Shown in pieces: positions 5,874 through 48,137 of a stretch of 64,000 bases of DNA. The stretch is from NCBI GenBank assembly GCA_018400395.1, contig JAGYMN010000001.1:2354-66353 (forward strand), given 5' to 3'. The translations under genes were made by a program, and so were the position numbers. Source of the DNA: Actinomycetota bacterium. GTDB lineage: Bacteria; Actinomycetota; Humimicrobiia; Humimicrobiales; Humimicrobiaceae. Under the pieces are notes generated by a model. The model worked only from the letters and a program-made list of their open reading frames with translations, was not told where the DNA came from and ran no database searches. How positions within the stretch are numbered: the stretch's first letter is position 1; each line of letters begins with the position of its first letter.

Positions 5874-6155
5874 TTATTTCCTTAATCCCAGTTCCTTGAT
5901 AAGCTTTTTATATTTTGAAATCTCACGATTTTTCAAATACTGAAGAAGCCTCTTTCTCTTCCCTACCATCATTACCAGACCCCTTCTTGAATGATTATCT
6001 TTCTTATTAGCCTTCAGATGCTCATTGAGTTTATTTATCCTGCTGGTCAGTATTGCAATCTGGACTTCCGTAGAGCCTGTATCCATTTCATGCGTTTTAA
6101 AATTTTCTATAATCTTCTGTTTTTCTTCTTTTACTAGTGTCAATCCGATATTCAC
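5874..6155 (-). CDS. rpsO: 30S ribosomal protein S15
   Basis: 93 aa; [17 protein letters not shown]…HSRRGL motif; GTG/TTG start adjacent to AGGAGG. Confidence 0.95.
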
Positions 6156-6246: not shown

Positions 6247-7191
6247 CTATGCCCTGAAAAATATTTCTGCATCAGAAATATCCTTTTTTATCTGTTCTAC
6301 CAGCTTCGTACTGTTTTTAAATTTTACTTCTCTTCTCAACTTTTTTAGAAAAGTTACCTTTATTTCCTTATCATATAAACAGCCTTCGAAATCAAGCAGG
6401 TGGCTTTCTACTACTTTTTTCTCCCCTCCAAATGTAGGATTTTTTCCAACATTAATTAATCCTTTAAGGTTCTTAATGCCATCATCTTTAATTGATACTC
6501 TACCAAAATATACACCATCTCCTGGGACTATAAGCTTTTCGGGTAAATCAATATTTGCAGTGGGAAATCCAAGTTTCCTTCCCCTGCCCGTTCCCCTAAC
6601 AACTCTTCCTTTAACATAAGGTTCTCTTCCAAGAAGTTCATTTATCCTTTCAATATTACCTTCCTGATAATACTTCCTGATGACAGTGCTTGATATCACC
6701 TCACCCCTGCTCTTTACCAGGCTTACTTCATTTATAATAGCTCCCTGGCTGCCCATATAATCTTTTAAAAATGCCGTATCTCCTCCGGCATCCTTACCAA
6801 ATCTGAAACCCTGACCTATAAAAAGTCCTTTTATATAAAATAATCCTTTTAATATATCATCACAGAATACTTTTGGGCTAAGATTTAAAAAATCCATTCC
6901 AATTTCTGCAGTTACTATTGCTTCTATTCCCAGTTTTTTTATTATTCTTATTTTTTCCTCATAGGGAAGAATCAACTCTTTATATATTCTGCTTTTAATG
7001 ATATTTATTGGAGGTCTGTCAAATGTAAGTGCCACGCTCGTTCCTCCATTTTCCAATGCTCTTTCACAGCACATTTTTATTATTTTCTGGTGTCCCCTGT
7101 GCACTCCGTCAAAAAAGCCTATCACCATCAGTGTATGGGCATCTTTGAATTGATCTTTTTTTATATCTTTTAATTTAAAAATTCTGGCCAA
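6247..7191 (-). CDS. ribF: Bifunctional riboflavin kinase / FMN adenylyltransferase
   Basis: 314 aa; GFFDGVHRGHQ nucleotidyltransferase motif, C-terminal riboflavin kinase domain (PTAN…, GVY). Confidence 0.9.
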   Translation of the reverse strand: MARIFKLKDIKKDQFKDAHTLMVIGFFDGVHRGHQKIIKMCCERALENGGTSVALTFDRPPINIIKSRIYKELILPYEEKIRIIKKLGIEAIVTAEIGMDFLNLSPKVFCDDILKGLFYIKGLFIGQGFRFGKDAGGDTAFLKDYMGSQGAIINEVSLVKSRGEVISSTVIRKYYQEGNIERINELLGREPYVKGRVVRGTGRGRKLGFPTANIDLPEKLIVPGDGVYFGRVSIKDDGIKNLKGLINVGKNPTFGGEKKVVESHLLDFEGCLYDKEIKVTFLKKLRREVKFKNSTKLVEQIKKDISDAEIFFRA

Positions 7192-7247: not shown

Positions 7248-8257
7248 TTAAAAAATTACAATATTTTCTGTAAAATTTTTATTAAAACTTTTAGTATCTT
7301 CGATATATAAACCTTTTTTTAATCTGTGCAGCGCAATTATATTACCTTCCAGGGATCTTATTGCTATGACCCTTCCCAGATTATCCTCCGAAACCCTGAG
7401 TTCATTTAAAAAACATGATAATTTCTTACTATCCGTATCAATAATCTCTGTCCTTAACGGGCTGCCATCTATTATTCTTTTCTCATTTTCTTTTCTTACG
7501 TAAACTGACGGGTTTTTATCAAACAGATTTCCCAAACTCATTATTCCTCTTTCATTTACAGGAACCTTATTAAGTTTGGCCATATAAATCATTTCTTTTA
7601 TGCTTCTTGCATGTTCAATTTTAAAATCTCCTATATCTGTCCTTATAAGTCCTGCAAGTGCTGCTCCTGTTCCGTATGTCTCTCCCATATCGTTCGCAAG
7701 AGACCTTATGTAGGTTCCCGCACTGCATTTTATTTTAAGAATCAATAAATTTCTTTCTATCCTCAGGATATCCATATTATAAATCTCTATTTCACGATAA
7801 TTTCTCTTTATCTCTACTCCCATTCTTGCAAATCTATACAGGGGTTTACCCCCGTGCTTGACTGATGAATACATTGGAGGTAATTGCCTTAACCTCCCTT
7901 TAAAGTCTCCCAAAATATTATTTAAAATATTTTTATTAAGTTCTTGAACTTTTTCTTTCCTTATTACTTTCCCATCAAGATCCCATGTATCTGTCTGTAT
8001 TCCGAATTTTAATAAAGCAATATATTCTTTAGGAAGCCCAATAAATTCGCTGGAAATTTTTGTACCCTTATTTATAAGAAGGATCATCAGACCAGAAGCT
8101 GCAGGGTCAAGAGTACCGGTGTGTCCAATTTTTTCTAAAAAAAAACTTTCCTTATTCCTCTTATTACATCATAGGAAGTTATGCCTGATGGTTTATATGC
8201 AAGGATTATACCATTAAAACCCTTTAATAACCCTGAACGCCCGTCTTTTCCAATCAT
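7248..8257 (-). CDS. truB: tRNA pseudouridine(55) synthase TruB, interrupted by a -1 homopolymer frameshift
   Basis: ORF track 7248..8087 lacks N-terminus. Own translation: ATG at 8257 gives MIGKDGRSGLLKGFNGIILAYKPSGITSYDVIRGIRKVFF* (stop 8135); next frame continues LEKIGHTGTLDPAASGLMILLINKG… (catalytic Asp motif GHTGTLDP). Frames join if the A9 run at 8137-8145 (T9 on coding strand) were 10 nt. ATGA overlap with nrnA stop. Confidence 0.85.
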
Positions 8258-9288
8258 ACCGTTCCGTTCCCTATAGCCTCTTTCATCCTTTCAATCACTT
8301 CATTAAGGCTGCCGTCATCCTTATATGCAGAAGCACTGCGGTGCCCTCCGCCACCAAAAATTGAAGCTATTCTTGACAGGTCTATATTACTGTCAGACGT
8401 CCTGAGGCTTACCTTGAATGAATTAACATCTATCTGTTTTATAAGAACAGTTATTTTTGCGCCTTCGGCACTTCTTAAAAGCTCTATTATACCGTCCTGC
8501 GCATAAAAAGGAATTTTTAATCTGGTAAAATCTTCTTTTAATATATAAGAATAAATAAGGCTAAGAGATTTTACGTATTCTATTCTGCTGAAAACCTTCT
8601 GTATAAGCTTGAACCTTCCAAGGGGGTCACTTTCATATATATAACCATAAACATCAGAGGGTTTGATTCCAATCTTTATTAGTTCACTCGCTATCCTGTG
8701 AACATTTGCTGTTGTACTGCTGTACTGAAATCTGCCGGTATCCGTAAGTATTCCCACATAAATACCTATGCCTATATCATAATTTAATTTCTCCCTGTAA
8801 TTTTTGTAAATGAATTCATAAAGCATTTCAGCAGTTGCAGACTTATTTCTATCAACCATATTCATATCGCCAAAGCAGCTATTACTGCTGTGATGGTCCA
8901 CATTTATTACACAGCCTGTTTTTTCCCTTAAATAATCAAAATCAATGCCTGCCCTCTCTGCTTCAGCACAATCGACCATGATACATACGGGCCTGTTTCT
9001 TAAAAGAACTTCTAATTCTGGATGCTTTTTAATTTTATTAAAGTCCGGTAAAAAACTATATTGATACGGAAGATCGCTATTACATATCATAGTTGTTTTT
9101 TTATTCATTGAAGAAATAAGGCTGTTCAAAGCTGTAAGCGATCCAAGGGCATCTCCATCAGGAAATATATGGGTAATTATTAAAAATTCATCATTTCTTT
9201 CTATCTGTCTGGCCATATTCCGGTATAATATATCCCGGTCTTCATTATTAACTACCACTATCTTTTCCTTCTTTGTTAATGGTCTCAA
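8254..9288 (-). CDS. nrnA: DHH/DHHA1 family phosphoesterase (NrnA-like oligoribonuclease/pAp phosphatase)
   Basis: 344 aa; HIFPDGDALGS (DHH motif I), DHH, GGGH (DHHA1). Probable true start at internal Met 9216 (MARQIE…), removing overlap with rbfA. Confidence 0.8.
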   Translation of the reverse strand: MRPLTKKEKIVVVNNEDRDILYRNMARQIERNDEFLIITHIFPDGDALGSLTALNSLISSMNKKTTMICNSDLPYQYSFLPDFNKIKKHPELEVLLRNRPVCIMVDCAEAERAGIDFDYLREKTGCVINVDHHSSNSCFGDMNMVDRNKSATAEMLYEFIYKNYREKLNYDIGIGIYVGILTDTGRFQYSSTTANVHRIASELIKIGIKPSDVYGYIYESDPLGRFKLIQKVFSRIEYVKSLSLIYSYILKEDFTRLKIPFYAQDGIIELLRSAEGAKITVLIKQIDVNSFKVSLRTSDSNIDLSRIASIFGGGGHRSASAYKDDGSLNEVIERMKEAIGNGTV

Positions 9289-9604
9289 GTATTTTAGATA
9301 TTCTCATCCCTCTGTCAATTGAATCATCATATATAAATTTTAAATCGGGTATATTTTTTAATCTGATCCTTCCAGAAATCTTTTTCTTTATAAAGCCGAC
9401 ACATCCCCTTAGGATCTCCAGACTATTTCTCCTGTCCTCTTCTTTTCCCATTATGCTTAAATATATATCAAGATATTTACAGTCTGCTGAGAGCTTTGTA
9501 CCTGTAATAGTAACAAAACCAATCCTTGGATCTTTTAATTCCGTGTTTATTATAAAGCTTATTTCTCTTTTTATATCAATTGTTAACTTCTTTAATCTAT
9601 CCAC
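9248..9604 (-). CDS. rbfA: Ribosome-binding factor A
   Basis: 118 aa; position after infB and similarity to RbfA (…RIGFVTITGTKLSADCKYLDIY…). Confidence 0.85.
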   Translation of the reverse strand: MDRLKKLTIDIKREISFIINTELKDPRIGFVTITGTKLSADCKYLDIYLSIMGKEEDRRNSLEILRGCVGFIKKKISGRIRLKNIPDLKFIYDDSIDRGMRISKILETINKEGKDSGS

Positions 9605-9619
9605 AATCTTTACAATAAA

Positions 9620-12190
9620 TTATATAATTTCAAAAAGTTCCAGTATATCATTTTGCTCTATAGACTGATAATTAACAATTCTTATACCACACTCATATCC
9701 TGCAGCTACATTCTTTACATCTTCCTTGAATCTTTGAAGACTTTCTACTTTACCTTCATAAATAATCGAGCCGTTCCTGATTACACGTACCATATCGCCT
9801 CTCTCAACTGAACCTTCAGTAATGTAGCAGCCGGCTATTTTCCCAATTTTAGAAAACTTAAATATTTCTCTTACTTCAGCTTTTCCTTTTTCAACTATCT
9901 TTTTTTCTGGTTCCAGAAGACCCTCGAAGGCAAGTTTTATATCATCTATAAGTTTATATATTATTGCGTAGGTCCTTATATCCACTTTCTCCCTTAAGTT
10001 TAGAGAAGTTGCTGTAGCTGTTGGGACAACTCCAAAACCTACTATAATCGCACTGGAAGCACTTGCCAGAAGGATATCACTTTCTGTAATGGCACCTATG
10101 CCCTTGTGAATTATTTCTATTTTTATTTCATCCGTTTCAATTTTTTTAAGGGATTTATCTACTGCATCCAATGAACCTTCTGATTCTGCCTTGAGTATCA
10201 ATTTTAATTTTTTTAACTCACCCTGTTGTGACATCTCTGAAAGGTTTTCAAGTGTCAGTATCTTTCTGGAACTGCCCATCTTCATAACTTTTTTATCATA
10301 ATCTCTTTTTGAAAGAAGGTCTTTTCCTACTTTTTCATTTTTAACCACAAAAAGTTTATCCCCTGCCTTTGGAAGAGATGAAAATCCCGTCATTTCTACA
10401 GGACTTGAAAGTGAAGCTTCTTTTAAGTCTATGCCATTTTCATCTCTTATCGTCCTTATTCTGCCGTATGAGTCTCCTGTTACAAATGAGTCTCCTACTT
10501 TTATTTTGCCTCTCTTCACTATTAGGGAACCAATTGGACCCATTCCCTTATCAAGCCTGCTTTCAATTATTATCCCTGTTGCCACAGCATCCGGATTACC
10601 TTTCAGATCCTGCATATCTGCTACAAGAAGGATCATTTCCAATAAATCATCAATATTCTTGTTATTTTTTGCAGAGATCTCAACAACAATGGTATCACCG
10701 CCCCATTCTTCTGTAACCAGCCCGTGTTCGGTAAGCCCCTGTTTTATTCTTTTTGGATCTGAATCTGGCAGATCTATTTTATTTATCGCTACAATTATTG
10801 GAACATCTGCATCTTTTGCATGGTCTATCGCTTCAACAGTCTGCGGCATAATACCATCATCTGCTGCAATTACTATTACTGCTATATCTGTAACTCCTGT
10901 ACCTCTTGCCCTTATAGAAGTGAAAGCTTCATGACCGGGTGTGTCTATGAATGTAATCTTTCTCTTATTATATTCTATCTGATATGCACCAATATGCTGT
11001 GTTATTCCACCGGCTTCACTACTGGCAACTTTAGTTTTCCTTATTGAATCAAGAAGTGTGGTTTTACCATGATCAACATGACCCATTACCGTAACAATAG
11101 GAGCCCTTTTTACCAGTTCTTCCTCGGAATCCTTATAAACTTCCTCCATCTTTTCTTCAAATCCAATTATTCTGTATTTAAAACTATATTCATTTGACAG
11201 AAATTCTAGCAGATCTTTACTCGGTGACTGATTTATTGTAAGTACTTCACCCATTTTAAAAAGTAAGCTTATTATTTCACTTGAAGGTATGTTTACCTTT
11301 TCAGAAAGCTGTTTTATTGTGATACCTTCGTGTACTTCTATGATCTTCTTTATTTCAGGTCTTTTTTTCCTAATTTTTTCAGGTTCCTTTGCCTTGCTCT
11401 GTCCAGAAGGTTTGCTTTCCTTTCCAACTTTAGTGCGCTTTTTCTGCAGGAATTTTGCCTTTAGTCTCCCGCTCTTCTCCTCTTTGTCAAGTTCTTTATC
11501 AAGTACGCTTCTTATACTTTTCTTTTTTTCTTCTTCCCAAACTACTCTTTTATTAGAAACCTTTTTTGTGCTAATAAATTTATCTTCTTCCAGGTCTATT
11601 GAATCTTCTATGCTCTCCCTTATTGCATCCTCTTCTTTAAGAGATTTCTTCCTGTCCCGCACTGCCCTTGCAGCATGTTTCCTTTCAGATTTATCTTCCT
11701 TCTTCTCTTCTTCTTCTTCGATTTTTTTAGCCTCTTCGAGAGCTTTCTTCTCTTCTTCTTTCTTTTTTGCTTCTTCTTCGGCCTTCTTTTTTGCTTCTTC
11801 TTCGGCCTTCTTTTCTGCTTCTTCTTTTCTTTTAGCTTCCTCTTCTGCTTTTCTTGATTCTTCAGCTTTCTTTTTTACTTCCTCTGCTGCCTTTCTTTTT
11901 GCAGCTTCCTTTTCTTTTTTATCCTGCTGTCTTTTTTTCTTCTCGGCTTCTATTGCTTTTTTCTTTTCTTCCTTAGCTCTCTCTTTTTCCCTTGATTTTT
12001 TCTCCAGGGCTTCCTTTTCTTTTCTCTTTGCCTCTTTTTTAATAGCAATATCAATTTTTTTAACCTGTGAATCGTTAAGTACCGACATCTCTCCTTTTAT
12101 GGCAATGCCAAGGCTATCACAGATATAAAAAATATCATTTATATCTAATTTTTTTTCTTTTGCTAAATCAATAACCTTAATATCTATCAC
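9620..12190 (-). CDS. infB: Translation initiation factor IF-2
   Basis: 856 aa; GHVDHGKTTLLD G-domain, K/E-rich low-complexity N-terminal region, conserved C-terminal beta-barrels. Confidence 0.95.
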   Translation of the reverse strand: MIDIKVIDLAKEKKLDINDIFYICDSLGIAIKGEMSVLNDSQVKKIDIAIKKEAKRKEKEALEKKSREKERAKEEKKKAIEAEKKKRQQDKKEKEAAKRKAAEEVKKKAEESRKAEEEAKRKEEAEKKAEEEAKKKAEEEAKKKEEEKKALEEAKKIEEEEEKKEDKSERKHAARAVRDRKKSLKEEDAIRESIEDSIDLEEDKFISTKKVSNKRVVWEEEKKKSIRSVLDKELDKEEKSGRLKAKFLQKKRTKVGKESKPSGQSKAKEPEKIRKKRPEIKKIIEVHEGITIKQLSEKVNIPSSEIISLLFKMGEVLTINQSPSKDLLEFLSNEYSFKYRIIGFEEKMEEVYKDSEEELVKRAPIVTVMGHVDHGKTTLLDSIRKTKVASSEAGGITQHIGAYQIEYNKRKITFIDTPGHEAFTSIRARGTGVTDIAVIVIAADDGIMPQTVEAIDHAKDADVPIIVAINKIDLPDSDPKRIKQGLTEHGLVTEEWGGDTIVVEISAKNNKNIDDLLEMILLVADMQDLKGNPDAVATGIIIESRLDKGMGPIGSLIVKRGKIKVGDSFVTGDSYGRIRTIRDENGIDLKEASLSSPVEMTGFSSLPKAGDKLFVVKNEKVGKDLLSKRDYDKKVMKMGSSRKILTLENLSEMSQQGELKKLKLILKAESEGSLDAVDKSLKKIETDEIKIEIIHKGIGAITESDILLASASSAIIVGFGVVPTATATSLNLREKVDIRTYAIIYKLIDDIKLAFEGLLEPEKKIVEKGKAEVREIFKFSKIGKIAGCYITEGSVERGDMVRVIRNGSIIYEGKVESLQRFKEDVKNVAAGYECGIRIVNYQSIEQNDILELFEII
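11761..11832 (-). repeat. In-frame 24-nt tandem repeat (~3 copies, tcttttttgcttcttcttcggcct on + strand) encoding AEEEAKKK units in the IF-2 N-terminal linker
   Basis: Directly visible: unit at 11761-11784 repeated exactly at 11785-11808 and imperfectly at 11809-11832; protein shows KKAEEEAKKKAEEEAKKKEEE. Confidence 0.8.
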
Positions 12191-17347: not shown

Positions 17348-18412
17348 CTATAATAGCTTTTCTAATTCATTCTTGAATTCTTTCAGCACATTATCCTTTT
17401 TTACTCTTTTTATTACCGATCCCTTTAGAAAAATTGCTGCCCTGTCTTTTCCAAAAGCAATCCCGAGATCTGCATCCTTAGCTTCACCCGGACCATTTAC
17501 TATGCACCCCATCACTGCCAGTTTCAATCCTTTCTTTATGTCACCCGTCATCTCCTCTATCTGTTTTACTATACTCTGAAGGTCCACAGTTGTTCTTCCG
17601 CATGTCGGACAGGAAACTATATTTACCCCTTTATTGCGCAGTCCCAGGCTGTCAAGTATAAGATAGCCTATCTTTACTTCTTCAGAGGATTTATCAGTAA
17701 GAGATACCCTGATTGTATCTCCTATGCCTTCTGCCAGCAGAATGCCAAGTCCAACAGATGATTTTACTGTGCCAGGTATCATTGGGCCTGCTTCTGTGAC
17801 ACCAATATGCAGCGGGTATCTACATTTTTCAGATATTGTTCTGTAAACACTTATAGTATCTATAACAGAAGAAGCCTTGGCAGAAATTTTAAAATTATAA
17901 AAATCAAGGTTTTCAAACAGTTTTATATTTTCAATGGTGCTTTCTATCATCGAATATTTTATATTACCATTATTCTTTCTCAGGATTTTCTTATCTACCG
18001 AACCGGAGTTTATTCCCAACCTGACAGCTATCCCATTTTTTTTTGCATAATCTATGACCTTAGCAGTTCTTTCGCGCCCGCCTATATTACCAGGATTTAT
18101 ACGAATACCGCTTACTCCTGCCTTTATACTGTCTATTGCCAGTGTACAGTCGAAATGAATATCTGCTACAACCGGCACTCTAAAAATTCCTGAATCAATA
18201 AGTTTTTTCAATTCTGAAACTGCAGATTTATCCGGTATTGCTATCCTTATTACTTCACAGCCACACTCAATTAATTCATTTATCTCTGCCCTTATTGCAA
18301 TGCTGTTTAGAATATTTGATTTTGTCATAGATTGTACTGAGATACGGTTACTGCCTCCTATTCCCAGGCTTCCCAGCTTTATCTCCCTGGTTTTTTTTCG
18401 GATAATCTTCAT
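17348..18412 (-). CDS. ispG: 4-hydroxy-3-methylbut-2-en-1-yl diphosphate synthase (GcpE)
   Basis: 354 aa; TIM-barrel N-domain and C-terminal 4Fe-4S cysteines VSCPTCGRT…C. Confidence 0.9.
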   Translation of the reverse strand: MKIIRKKTREIKLGSLGIGGSNRISVQSMTKSNILNSIAIRAEINELIECGCEVIRIAIPDKSAVSELKKLIDSGIFRVPVVADIHFDCTLAIDSIKAGVSGIRINPGNIGGRERTAKVIDYAKKNGIAVRLGINSGSVDKKILRKNNGNIKYSMIESTIENIKLFENLDFYNFKISAKASSVIDTISVYRTISEKCRYPLHIGVTEAGPMIPGTVKSSVGLGILLAEGIGDTIRVSLTDKSSEEVKIGYLILDSLGLRNKGVNIVSCPTCGRTTVDLQSIVKQIEEMTGDIKKGLKLAVMGCIVNGPGEAKDADLGIAFGKDRAAIFLKGSVIKRVKKDNVLKEFKNELEKLL

Positions 18413-29366: not shown

Positions 29367-29469
29367 TTATTTTATTGAATTGAAAATGCTGACTCATTAC
29401 CTGTTCTAAACCTTTATAACCCGGGCTTTTTAATTATAATAACCAAAAAATTTTTTATATTCAAAATGG

Positions 29470-29759
29470 CTATTTCTTTTTTAGTTCAGGAGGCAGTTCG
29501 GAAATATTAAAAACCTGTCCGGGATTGATTAGATTTACATCTTTTATTTCATCCTTATTAGCACTCTGTATCAGTTCATAGTATTTTTTTGCTATAGCAC
29601 TTAAAGTATCACTTTTTTTACAGTGTGTTTTGCAATTATTCCCGGCTCTTTTTTAACACCATAAACCCCCGGGGCCGATCCTGCTCTTCTTGCGCTTGTC
29701 CTTAACCGGGATGATGCAGCCCCAAGTCTCAACTTCTTATCTGCTTCCATTTTTTCCAT
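29470..29759 (-). pseudogene. LysM-domain protein gene interrupted by a single-base frameshift at an A7/T7 homopolymer
   Basis: Own translation: MEKMEADKKLRLGAASSRLRTSARRAGSAPGVYGVKKEPGIIAKHTVKK|V I L* then next frame …SDTLSAIAKKYYELIQSANKDEIKDVNLINPGQVFNISELPPELKKK* (LysM consensus Y.VKKGDTLS.IA…N.I.PGQ). One extra base in the T7 run at 29613-29619 restores a ~96-aa ORF. Confidence 0.6.
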
Positions 29760-30073
29760 TTTCTTCCTGGATGCCTCGGCGCGTGCCTTTGCAATTTTTG
29801 CCTGTCAAATATACCCATTTTCCCTCCTATCTTGAAGTAACTTAGGCTCCCGTCATGATCCTTTTCAAGGGCATTTGATATCGCCCTGGCTTACTGCTCA
29901 TTAGAAGCATTTTTATCATTTTAGTAAAAACACGGGATATTTGATTCATAAAATAATGCGGCAAACAAATAATAGACCTGTAAAAATAAATTTAATTTAC
30001 TCCAGTGTAGCCCGGAATCATAATTACACAAATAATCTTTTTGCCATTTATTTTCTTTCTAAAATTTCCTGTT

Positions 30074-47659: not shown

Positions 47660-47945
47660 ATATAACCAGCCGCCTTACCTTTTTTGATTGACTTAGATAT
47701 TATAACAAAAAACAATTTTTTACACTTATATTTGACTTAATACTTTATTAATAGTTTCGTTTCCTTAAAATCATTTATTTTTTTTATACCGGGCGACCAG
47801 GGTTTTTGCCAATTTACCGGTGTTTTTTTTTAGATTTTATTGAAAATAATAAAATAAAGTGATAATATTCCCAGAGTTTATTATTAATATTTGAAAAATA
47901 CAGTATTTAGGGCATCAAAAGCCTTATCTGAAAAGAGTGATATAG

Positions 47946-48137
47946 ATGGCCAGAGTTTGTGACATATGCGGTAAAAAGACTTCAACAGGTAATAATGTGA
48001 GTCATTCACATAAAAAAACAAAAAGGGTTTTTAAACCAAATATTCAAAAAGCAAAAGTAGAAATAAACGGAACGATAAAAACTATTAATATCTGCACAAG
48101 CTGCCTTAAGGCCAATAAAGTAAAAAAGGTAGTATGA
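47946..48137 (+). CDS. rpmB: 50S ribosomal protein L28
   Basis: 63 aa; [11 protein letters not shown]…[15 protein letters not shown] motif. Confidence 0.95.

Follow-up and report, generated by a model that had tools for sequence, protein, structure and literature searches.

We analysed a 64,000-nucleotide stretch of Actinomycetota DNA (contig JAGYMN010000001.1), called the window below, and found a truB gene whose two parts lie in different reading frames on either side of a run of nine Ts on the coding (minus) strand. The minus-strand open reading frame (ORF) at 8135..8257 translates as MIGKDGRSGLLKGFNGIILAYKPSGITSYDVIRGIRKVFF followed by a stop, identical to the translation in an earlier sequence-only reading of this DNA. 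It ends after 40 codons as ...AGG AAA GTT TTT TTT TAG, and the last T of the run is the first base of the stop codon TAG (8137-8135). The -1 frame relative to it reads ...FFLEKIGHTGTLDPAASGLMILLINKG... and stays open to the stop at 7248-7250; after the run it continues as TTA GAA AAA ATT GGA CAC ACC GGT ACT CTT GAC CCT, which encodes LEKIGHTGTLDP. The run is the A9 at 8137-8145 on the plus strand, the sole A9 on that strand of the window. The features of the split gene are as follows.

8135..8257, minus strand: truB segment 1 (frame 0), from ATG 8257-8255 through RKVFF to TAG 8137-8135; 40 amino acids (aa)
8137..8145, minus strand: slippery run T9 (A9 on the plus strand), the proposed recoding site joining both truB segments
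8135..8137, minus strand: frame-0 stop codon TAG, overlapping the final T of the run
7248..8138, minus strand: truB segment 2 (-1 frame), from codon TTA (8138-8136) through LEKIGHTGTLDP to the stop at 7250-7248
8103..8126, minus strand: catalytic motif GHTGTLDP, with the catalytic Asp codon GAC at 8108-8106

Segment 1 carries the conserved N-terminal strand and the G-I-T-S-Y-D motif and aligns to residues 10-37 of Escherichia coli TruB, and segment 2 supplies the remainder of the catalytic domain together with a C-terminal extension. Adding a single T to the run gives a complete 336-aa TruB. We found that this repaired protein matches the whole Pfam TruB_N model (PF01509, positions 1-149 of 149, E 2.7e-48) and scores 218.8 bits against the NCBIfam equivalog TIGR00431 (cutoff 151.45) over model positions 2-208 of 210; the 279-aa fragment alone reaches only positions 45-208 of the latter. 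The alignment to E. coli TruB (1R3F/1K8W) is gap-free over the junction (RIYNANRAGHTGALDP), and the spacing of the Asp motif from the N-terminal strand is correct. By family cutoff and catalytic motif, the repaired protein is a predicted TruB, the tRNA pseudouridine(55) synthase. The sequence-only reading had placed the TruB N-terminus and GHTGTLDP in different frames that a T10 would join, and the translation, the TruB_N and TIGR00431 matches and the gap-free alignment all confirm this. The GHTGTLDP motif sits 3' of the frame-0 stop but 5' of the first possible start of its own frame (ATG 8087-8085).

The gene lies in an operon with the order infB-rbfA-DHH-truB-ribF-rpsO-pnp, and relatives share this order. 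The truB ATG overlaps the TGA of the DHH/DHHA1 gene that precedes it (ATGA, 8257-8254), an arrangement typical of translational coupling, here into truB frame 0. The neighbouring genes are listed here.

9620-12190, minus strand: infB, same operon
9248-9604, minus strand: rbfA, same operon
8254..9288, minus strand: DHH/DHHA1 (nrnA-like) gene, upstream neighbour of truB
6247..7191, minus strand: ribF (flavin adenine dinucleotide synthetase/riboflavin kinase), next operon gene 3' of truB
5874-6155, minus strand: rpsO, same operon

The window has a GC content of 38%, and nearly all of its genes are on the minus strand; across positions 1-64000, almost every gene-like ORF of at least 110 aa has this orientation. 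ARAGORN found no tRNA in the window, and an Rfam scan of it gave no match at the gathering threshold.

Conservation of the break and selection on both halves

All of the 15 database proteins nearest to the repaired TruB (100% to 38% identity) are short at the N-terminus and have no catalytic motif. In the DNA of these relatives we found the same operon, with a 39-43-codon mini-ORF ending in ...K(K/R)VFF-stop, nine Ts, and then L(E/D/K)KIGH(T/S)GTLDP in the -1 frame. Three further metagenome assemblies of this species share the break; they are set apart from the window by an amino-acid change, and one of them also by an indel in the neighbouring gene. The break is likewise found in relatives at 76%, 75%, ~52% and 38% TruB identity, and in lineages with many flanking substitutions.

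The sequence-only reading had proposed a comparison with orthologous loci. When one genome per GTDB species was scanned, 80 truB loci were obtained, and 35 of them are broken, namely 35/35 of the clade in which TruB similarity and record titles place the window. The broken loci come from low-GC Actinomycetota metagenome-assembled genomes (MAGs), including Candidatus Hydromicrobium and Candidatus Humimicrobiaceae (class Ca. Humimicrobiia). The 37 outgroup loci, from other phyla, have an intact truB without a long run; the other 8 loci were unmatched by the motif expression and were left unclassified. G-T9-TA(A/G) is found in 33/35 broken loci, and the remaining two carry a re-phased T9 (L071) and an A9 (L054).

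We also scanned metagenomes with a pattern that permitted T7-T11 at the truB site, and at least 120 stretches matched. Among the matches listed, at least 42 are genuine truB sites, all T9 and none T8 or T10; L105, also among the matches listed, has the same T9 junction cut by a contig end. At least 77 chance non-truB matches were listed with T7 to T10, so other lengths were detectable. One unrelated non-truB locus has T9 in one sample (L186) and T10 in another (L193) (…CCCCCTG-T9/T10-AAAAAAAATTGGTCACCAGC…), and this length polymorphism serves as a positive control for the scan. Overall, over 80 independent assemblies, drawn from many studies, have exactly T9 at truB. No full-length in-frame TruB of this clade was found in a collection of 5.8 billion proteins. 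Three full-length proteins of ~336 aa (P0047, P0082 and P0096) were considered as in-frame alleles of the clade and rejected, as they are unrelated TruBs.

Three lineages depart from the common form. L054 has no T-run; its break falls at an A9 that lies a few codons further upstream, where the frames read TTA AAA AAA AAT TCT TAG and AAA AAA AAA TTC TTA ... RIGHAGTLDP. In L071 the T9 stands in another codon phase, without an adjacent stop. The frame-0 stop lies two codons further 3' in both, and both truB genes still require one extra nucleotide. L046 (Ca. Calidifonticultor, same order) has its T9 in frame. In a rough single-gene TruB neighbour-joining tree, the three form a sub-branch nested among the G-T9-TAR lineages. 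This suggests that the run has been repeatedly remodelled around a constant length of nine. Judged from these variants, the quantity that is kept is apparently the run length of 9, not a particular sequence.

Selection was measured on a codon alignment of 43 distinct repaired truB coding sequences. The ratio of nonsynonymous to synonymous substitution rates (dN/dS; pooled Nei-Gojobori, 158 pairs) is 0.17 over the 37 codons that precede the run and 0.21 over the remainder, indicating that each piece is translated in its own frame and is under constraint there. Synonymous changes are plentiful in the flanking codons, while GTT TTT TTT TTA is unchanged in 41/43 sequences. Under the codon usage of the clade, V-F-F-L is expected to be spelled in this way with a frequency of 0.061 per independent lineage. 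The run is thus constrained at the nucleotide level, beyond coding needs.

The start codons were examined in 68 distinct sequence contexts of the junction, in which the frame-0 stop is TAA in 52 and TAG in 16. In every one (68/68), the catalytic frame has no ATG, GTG or TTG between its upstream stop and the strictly conserved GH[TSA]GTLDP motif, and the first possible downstream start lies 5 to 150 codons past that motif. The catalytic Asp can therefore be reached only by recoding from the upstream ATG.

Homopolymer runs and a second broken gene

To describe long runs in the clade, we used a sample of 613 kb, made up of the window and 83 loci, with expectations from a 5th-order Markov model. 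A/T runs of 8 nucleotides (nt) are not depleted (356 observed, ~275 expected). Runs of 9 nt outside truB number 22 against ~114 expected, and runs of at least 10 nt are absent (0 observed, ~83 expected). The cut-off at 10 nt is unusually sharp for genomes of 30-45% GC. Baranov et al. 2005 used such depletion to infer the slippage-prone run length, which is 9 nt in many genomes (PMC1088944), and the scarcity of slippage-prone lengths elsewhere in the host that they looked for is also seen in these 613 kb. They add the caveat that replication slippage could likewise deplete long runs (PMC1088944).

Shorter slippery sequences are common. Within 7-8-nt runs, clade genes contain 227 slippery-phase heptamers (181 A-type and 46 T-type) in ~80,000 codons. 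The sequence-only reading had proposed a genome-wide count of long A/T runs; in the window, 1 of the 32 runs of at least 8 nt interrupts a coding-strand gene, and that gene is truB. A mechanical scan for homopolymers that fuse ORFs on a ±1 change flagged mostly ordinary neighbouring or overlapping genes.

A few other 9-nt runs were observed. At 18036-18044 the window has T9 on the plus strand, an in-frame A9 on the coding strand (…TAT GCA AAA AAA AAT GGG…), within ORF 17348..18412 on the minus strand, an otherwise intact gene of 354 aa. Should 9-nt runs make the polymerase slip, some transcripts of this ORF would be out of frame. The third 9-nt run, T9 on the plus strand at 47823-47831, lies within a non-coding spacer of 490 nt, shortly before a small plus-strand ORF (~47937-48130). 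This ORF, read by eye as a putative ribosomal protein L28, is one of very few plus-strand genes in the window. In the Hydromicrobium group, rbfA has an in-frame A9 (GGC TTT ATA AAA AAA AAT TTG) ~1130 nt upstream of truB (L022, L025, L027, L035, L116, L118, L140 and L210). An in-frame A9 is also present in the C-terminal part of truB itself (TCT GAA AAA AAA ATA TTG, 'SEKKILNG') in L008, L009, L012, L015 and L016. Both of these runs recur across species despite the strong depletion of 9-nt runs elsewhere.

The window holds one more broken gene that had been linked to truB.

29440-29830, minus strand: LysM/YgaU-like pseudogene, with a frame break at 29613-29619

The sequence-only reading had described this break as the loss of one base from an A/T homopolymer and had taken it, as a second case of the same error class, to raise the odds of a sequencing artefact. 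The frame break does exist. Its attribution to the A-run does not hold, since the intact relatives read HTVKKGDTL and the simplest repair is a lost G. The homologues P0121-P0133 (50-67% identity) are intact at 144-155 aa and read ...HTVKKGDTLSAIAKKYYGSGAKKYYELIQ... Compared with them, the window copy lacks ~33 residues near the N-terminus, with a change of frame; a single base is gone at KK(G)DTL, in the simplest reading the G of the Gly codon and not an A of the run; and eight residues are missing in frame between the AKKYY repeats. The LysM gene is apparently a decaying, lineage-specific pseudogene. With relatives intact and at least three lesions in the window copy, we rejected it both as a second recoding site and as the same class of artefact, and it lends no support to raised artefact odds. 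We found no record of the exact product of either its 52-aa ORF or the neighbouring 141-aa gene.

Mechanism and rival explanations

Taken together, these data suggest that truB is very probably a conserved programmed recoding site, served by a transcriptional or a ribosomal route. The sequence-only reading had offered, as one of its options, a slippery site rescued by slippage. This option is supported in a stronger form than was proposed, as a fixed trait of the clade and not as an occasional rescue in a decaying AT-rich genome.

We think it probable that transcriptional slippage (T9→U10) is the main route; both routes may act together. In vivo, runs of 9 A or T cause efficient slippage of bacterial RNA polymerase, and dnaX of Thermus thermophilus uses such a run (PMC5009743; PMC1088944). 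At truB, the polymerase on the dA9 template would slip back on the weak rU:dA hybrid (~9 bp) and add a tenth U, and ordinary translation of the U10 mRNA would give ...RKVFFLEKIGHTGTLDP... Unedited transcripts would end at the TAG/TAA overlapping the run and yield the 40-aa peptide only, so that full-length TruB would come from only the fraction of expression events that gain one base at the run. As expected of programmed transcriptional slippage, an A/T run of ~9 nt lies in the coding sequence, and both the run and its frame relation are conserved. The sharp cut-off at 9-10 nt in the clade points to a length-dependent process, which fits the polymerase better. Persistence of the run could be explained by a ratchet: TruB would be lost with any substitution that breaks up the run, and an in-frame T10 repair would make a run of a length that the clade never retains. 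It is plausible that such a ratchet requires no regulatory benefit.

Several points weigh against slippage by the polymerase. We infer both the slipping machine, polymerase or ribosome, and its yield from DNA sequence. An in-phase U_UUU_UUU followed by a stop is a legitimate site of -1 ribosomal frameshifting, and the protein (...VFFLEK...) is identical by both routes. In the G-T9-TAR form, this heptamer and the stop codon could explain eight of the nine Ts, and only the first T and the variants L054 and L071 argue specifically for length 9. The depletion of long runs could stem from replication slippage as well as from transcriptional slippage. Finally, in-frame A9 runs occur in some other clade genes, and 9-nt runs are not absolutely forbidden.

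We consider programmed -1 ribosomal frameshifting, the chief rival, a possible though unlikely explanation. In this case the mRNA would keep U9, and the ribosome on GUU UUU UUU UAG would slip back on U_UUU_UUU and then read UUA GAA AAA; tandem slippage, or P-site slippage with the stop codon in the A site, would be variants of this. All broken lineages have the heptamer in the correct X_XXY_YYZ phase; this holds even for L054, with its A_AAA_AAA, and for L071, with its re-phased T9. A slow-to-decode codon in the A site can promote ribosomal shifting, and a stop codon directly follows the run in 68/68 main-type contexts. Moreover, dnaX uses frameshifting in some bacteria and transcriptional slippage in others (PMC1088944). 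However, neither a 3' hairpin or pseudoknot nor a 5' Shine-Dalgarno-like element is conserved in the 68 contexts. RNAalifold on windows of -60..+9, 0..+80, +9..+110 and -60..+100 around the run found no conserved RNA structure, with energies of ~0 that were no better than those of column shuffles. No Shine-Dalgarno-like element was found upstream of the run, where the consensus is A-rich, and no terminator- or attenuator-like hairpin precedes T9. The bare heptamers are so frequent in clade genes that, unstimulated, they cannot act as efficient sites of ribosomal shifting there. In addition, the conserved length is 9, not 7, the adjacent stop is dispensable (L071, L054), and the cut-off at 9-10 nt is the better match to the polymerase noted above. 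The absence of a shared stimulator and the constant length thus favour transcriptional slippage.

The remaining explanations do not invoke recoding, and all of them have to account for the same conserved T9. Phase variation at the DNA level, in which replication slippage would toggle the gene between T9 (off) and T10 (on) and TruB would be made in a T10 subpopulation, is very improbable. Assemblies show only the majority allele, and homopolymers this long are hypermutable, as discussed in PMC1088944. But across the more than 80 assemblies, which span many environments and lineages, neither T10 nor T8 was seen at truB, although the scan could tell T9 from T10 (L186/L193), and the protein collection holds no full-length in-frame member of the clade; a housekeeping tRNA-modification enzyme would also be an unusual target. 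That the break is a pseudogene, or a gene split into two separately translated pieces, is hardly credible. Gene callers do annotate a 40-aa ORF and a 245-279-aa 'TruB' in every relative. With near certainty, however, the purifying selection and the lack of an independent start together exclude both a pseudogene and a two-polypeptide enzyme: dN/dS is ~0.2 on both sides of a single lesion that lies at the same spot in the whole clade, and the GH[TSA]GTLDP motif is conserved in a stretch without a start (68/68). Retention across a class-level clade is incompatible with decay, of which LysM gives a real example. The genuine inactivating mutation considered in the sequence-only reading is refuted by the same dN/dS values on both halves. 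The chance that a genomic T10 was undercalled as T9 is practically negligible. Homopolymer indels are a known error class of some sequencing platforms, and the window holds the second broken gene, but the LysM break is that of a multi-lesion pseudogene and belongs to another class. The same T9 comes from different projects and apparently from different short-read assemblers, judging from contig names (k99_/k141_, NODE_, scaffold_). It is kept across lineages with many flank differences, down to ~38% TruB identity, and T10 runs were assembled elsewhere in the same collection. Among the window's long A/T runs, truB is also the single break of a coding-strand gene. The undercall put forward in the sequence-only reading can therefore be discarded.

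Whether by polymerase or ribosome, recoding at truB could also have a function. We regard it as doubtful that the slippery run is a regulatory device rather than a frozen accident, counting together two regulatory forms and a role of the short product. U-run slippage that varies with nucleotide pools, growth, temperature or elongation rate may set TruB levels together with the translation of ribF-rpsO-pnp. If the shift is partly ribosomal, greater slippage on U_UUU_UUU by tRNAs without pseudouridine-55 could bring TruB synthesis back, as an autoregulatory loop. A separate role is also conceivable for the conserved 40-aa termination product.

Significance and comparison with known systems

In every examined public genome of the clade, the annotated TruB is N-terminally truncated, lacks the catalytic Asp and stands beside a 40-aa orphan ORF. 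Annotation pipelines, and metabolic or completeness inferences for MAGs of this clade, should count truB as one recoded gene. In the open-access literature searched, including the 2016 review of Atkins et al. and Baranov et al. 2005, we came across no description of recoding in truB or Humimicrobiia. The class of mechanism, transcriptional slippage or -1 frameshifting, is already established; truB stands out as an obligatory case in a housekeeping gene that is kept class-wide. To our knowledge, most bacterial examples of productive transcriptional slippage come from mobile elements, from a virulence plasmid, from a single dnaX lineage or from endosymbionts in decay. It is rare for a whole bacterial class to share the obligatory recoding of a housekeeping gene on the chromosome. 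Over 80 natural 'replicates', together with the variants (A9, re-phased T9 and in-frame T9), allow tests of the homopolymer length required, of how dependence locks in through the ratchet, and of whether slippage regulates.

Like the frameshifting sites of E. coli dnaX and the IS3 family, truB has an in-phase X_XXY_YYZ heptamer, a -1 shift and a nearby overlapping stop. Those sites are accompanied by a 3' stem-loop or pseudoknot, in many cases with a Shine-Dalgarno-like stimulator on the 5' side, whereas neither is conserved at truB.

As far as the account in PMC5009743 (ref. B244) goes, slippage at poly(A) tracts in Buchnera and Blochmannia corrects frameshifted genes in 12-50% of transcripts. 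By that account, these cases resemble truB in being frameshifted housekeeping genes in AT-rich genomes that depend on homopolymer slippage, and they occur in degenerating endosymbionts. The truB hosts, in contrast, are MAGs from the environment (sediments, groundwater and lakes), and their operons are compact and otherwise intact. Unlike the endosymbiont cases, truB is a single site held through deep divergence, with TruB identity falling to ~38%.

In Shigella, one non-templated U at a U-run of mxiE fuses two ORFs (PMC1088944). As at truB, Shigella flexneri mxiE has two overlapping ORFs and a T run on the coding strand, and one U is needed for the longer functional product (PMC1088944, PMC5009743). 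But mxiE is a plasmid-borne virulence regulator of one genus, and its slippage has been shown experimentally, whereas truB is a chromosomal housekeeping gene for a tRNA pseudouridine synthase with a class-wide site, at which slippage is predicted from sequence.

T. thermophilus dnaX shares with truB a 9-nt homopolymer inside a chromosomal housekeeping gene, and its run gives a heterogeneous mRNA population (PMC1088944, PMC5009743). There, the templated mRNA makes the full-length protein and slippage the shorter one, and both are useful. At truB, by contrast, the templated mRNA would make only a 40-aa peptide, and slippage would be obligatory.

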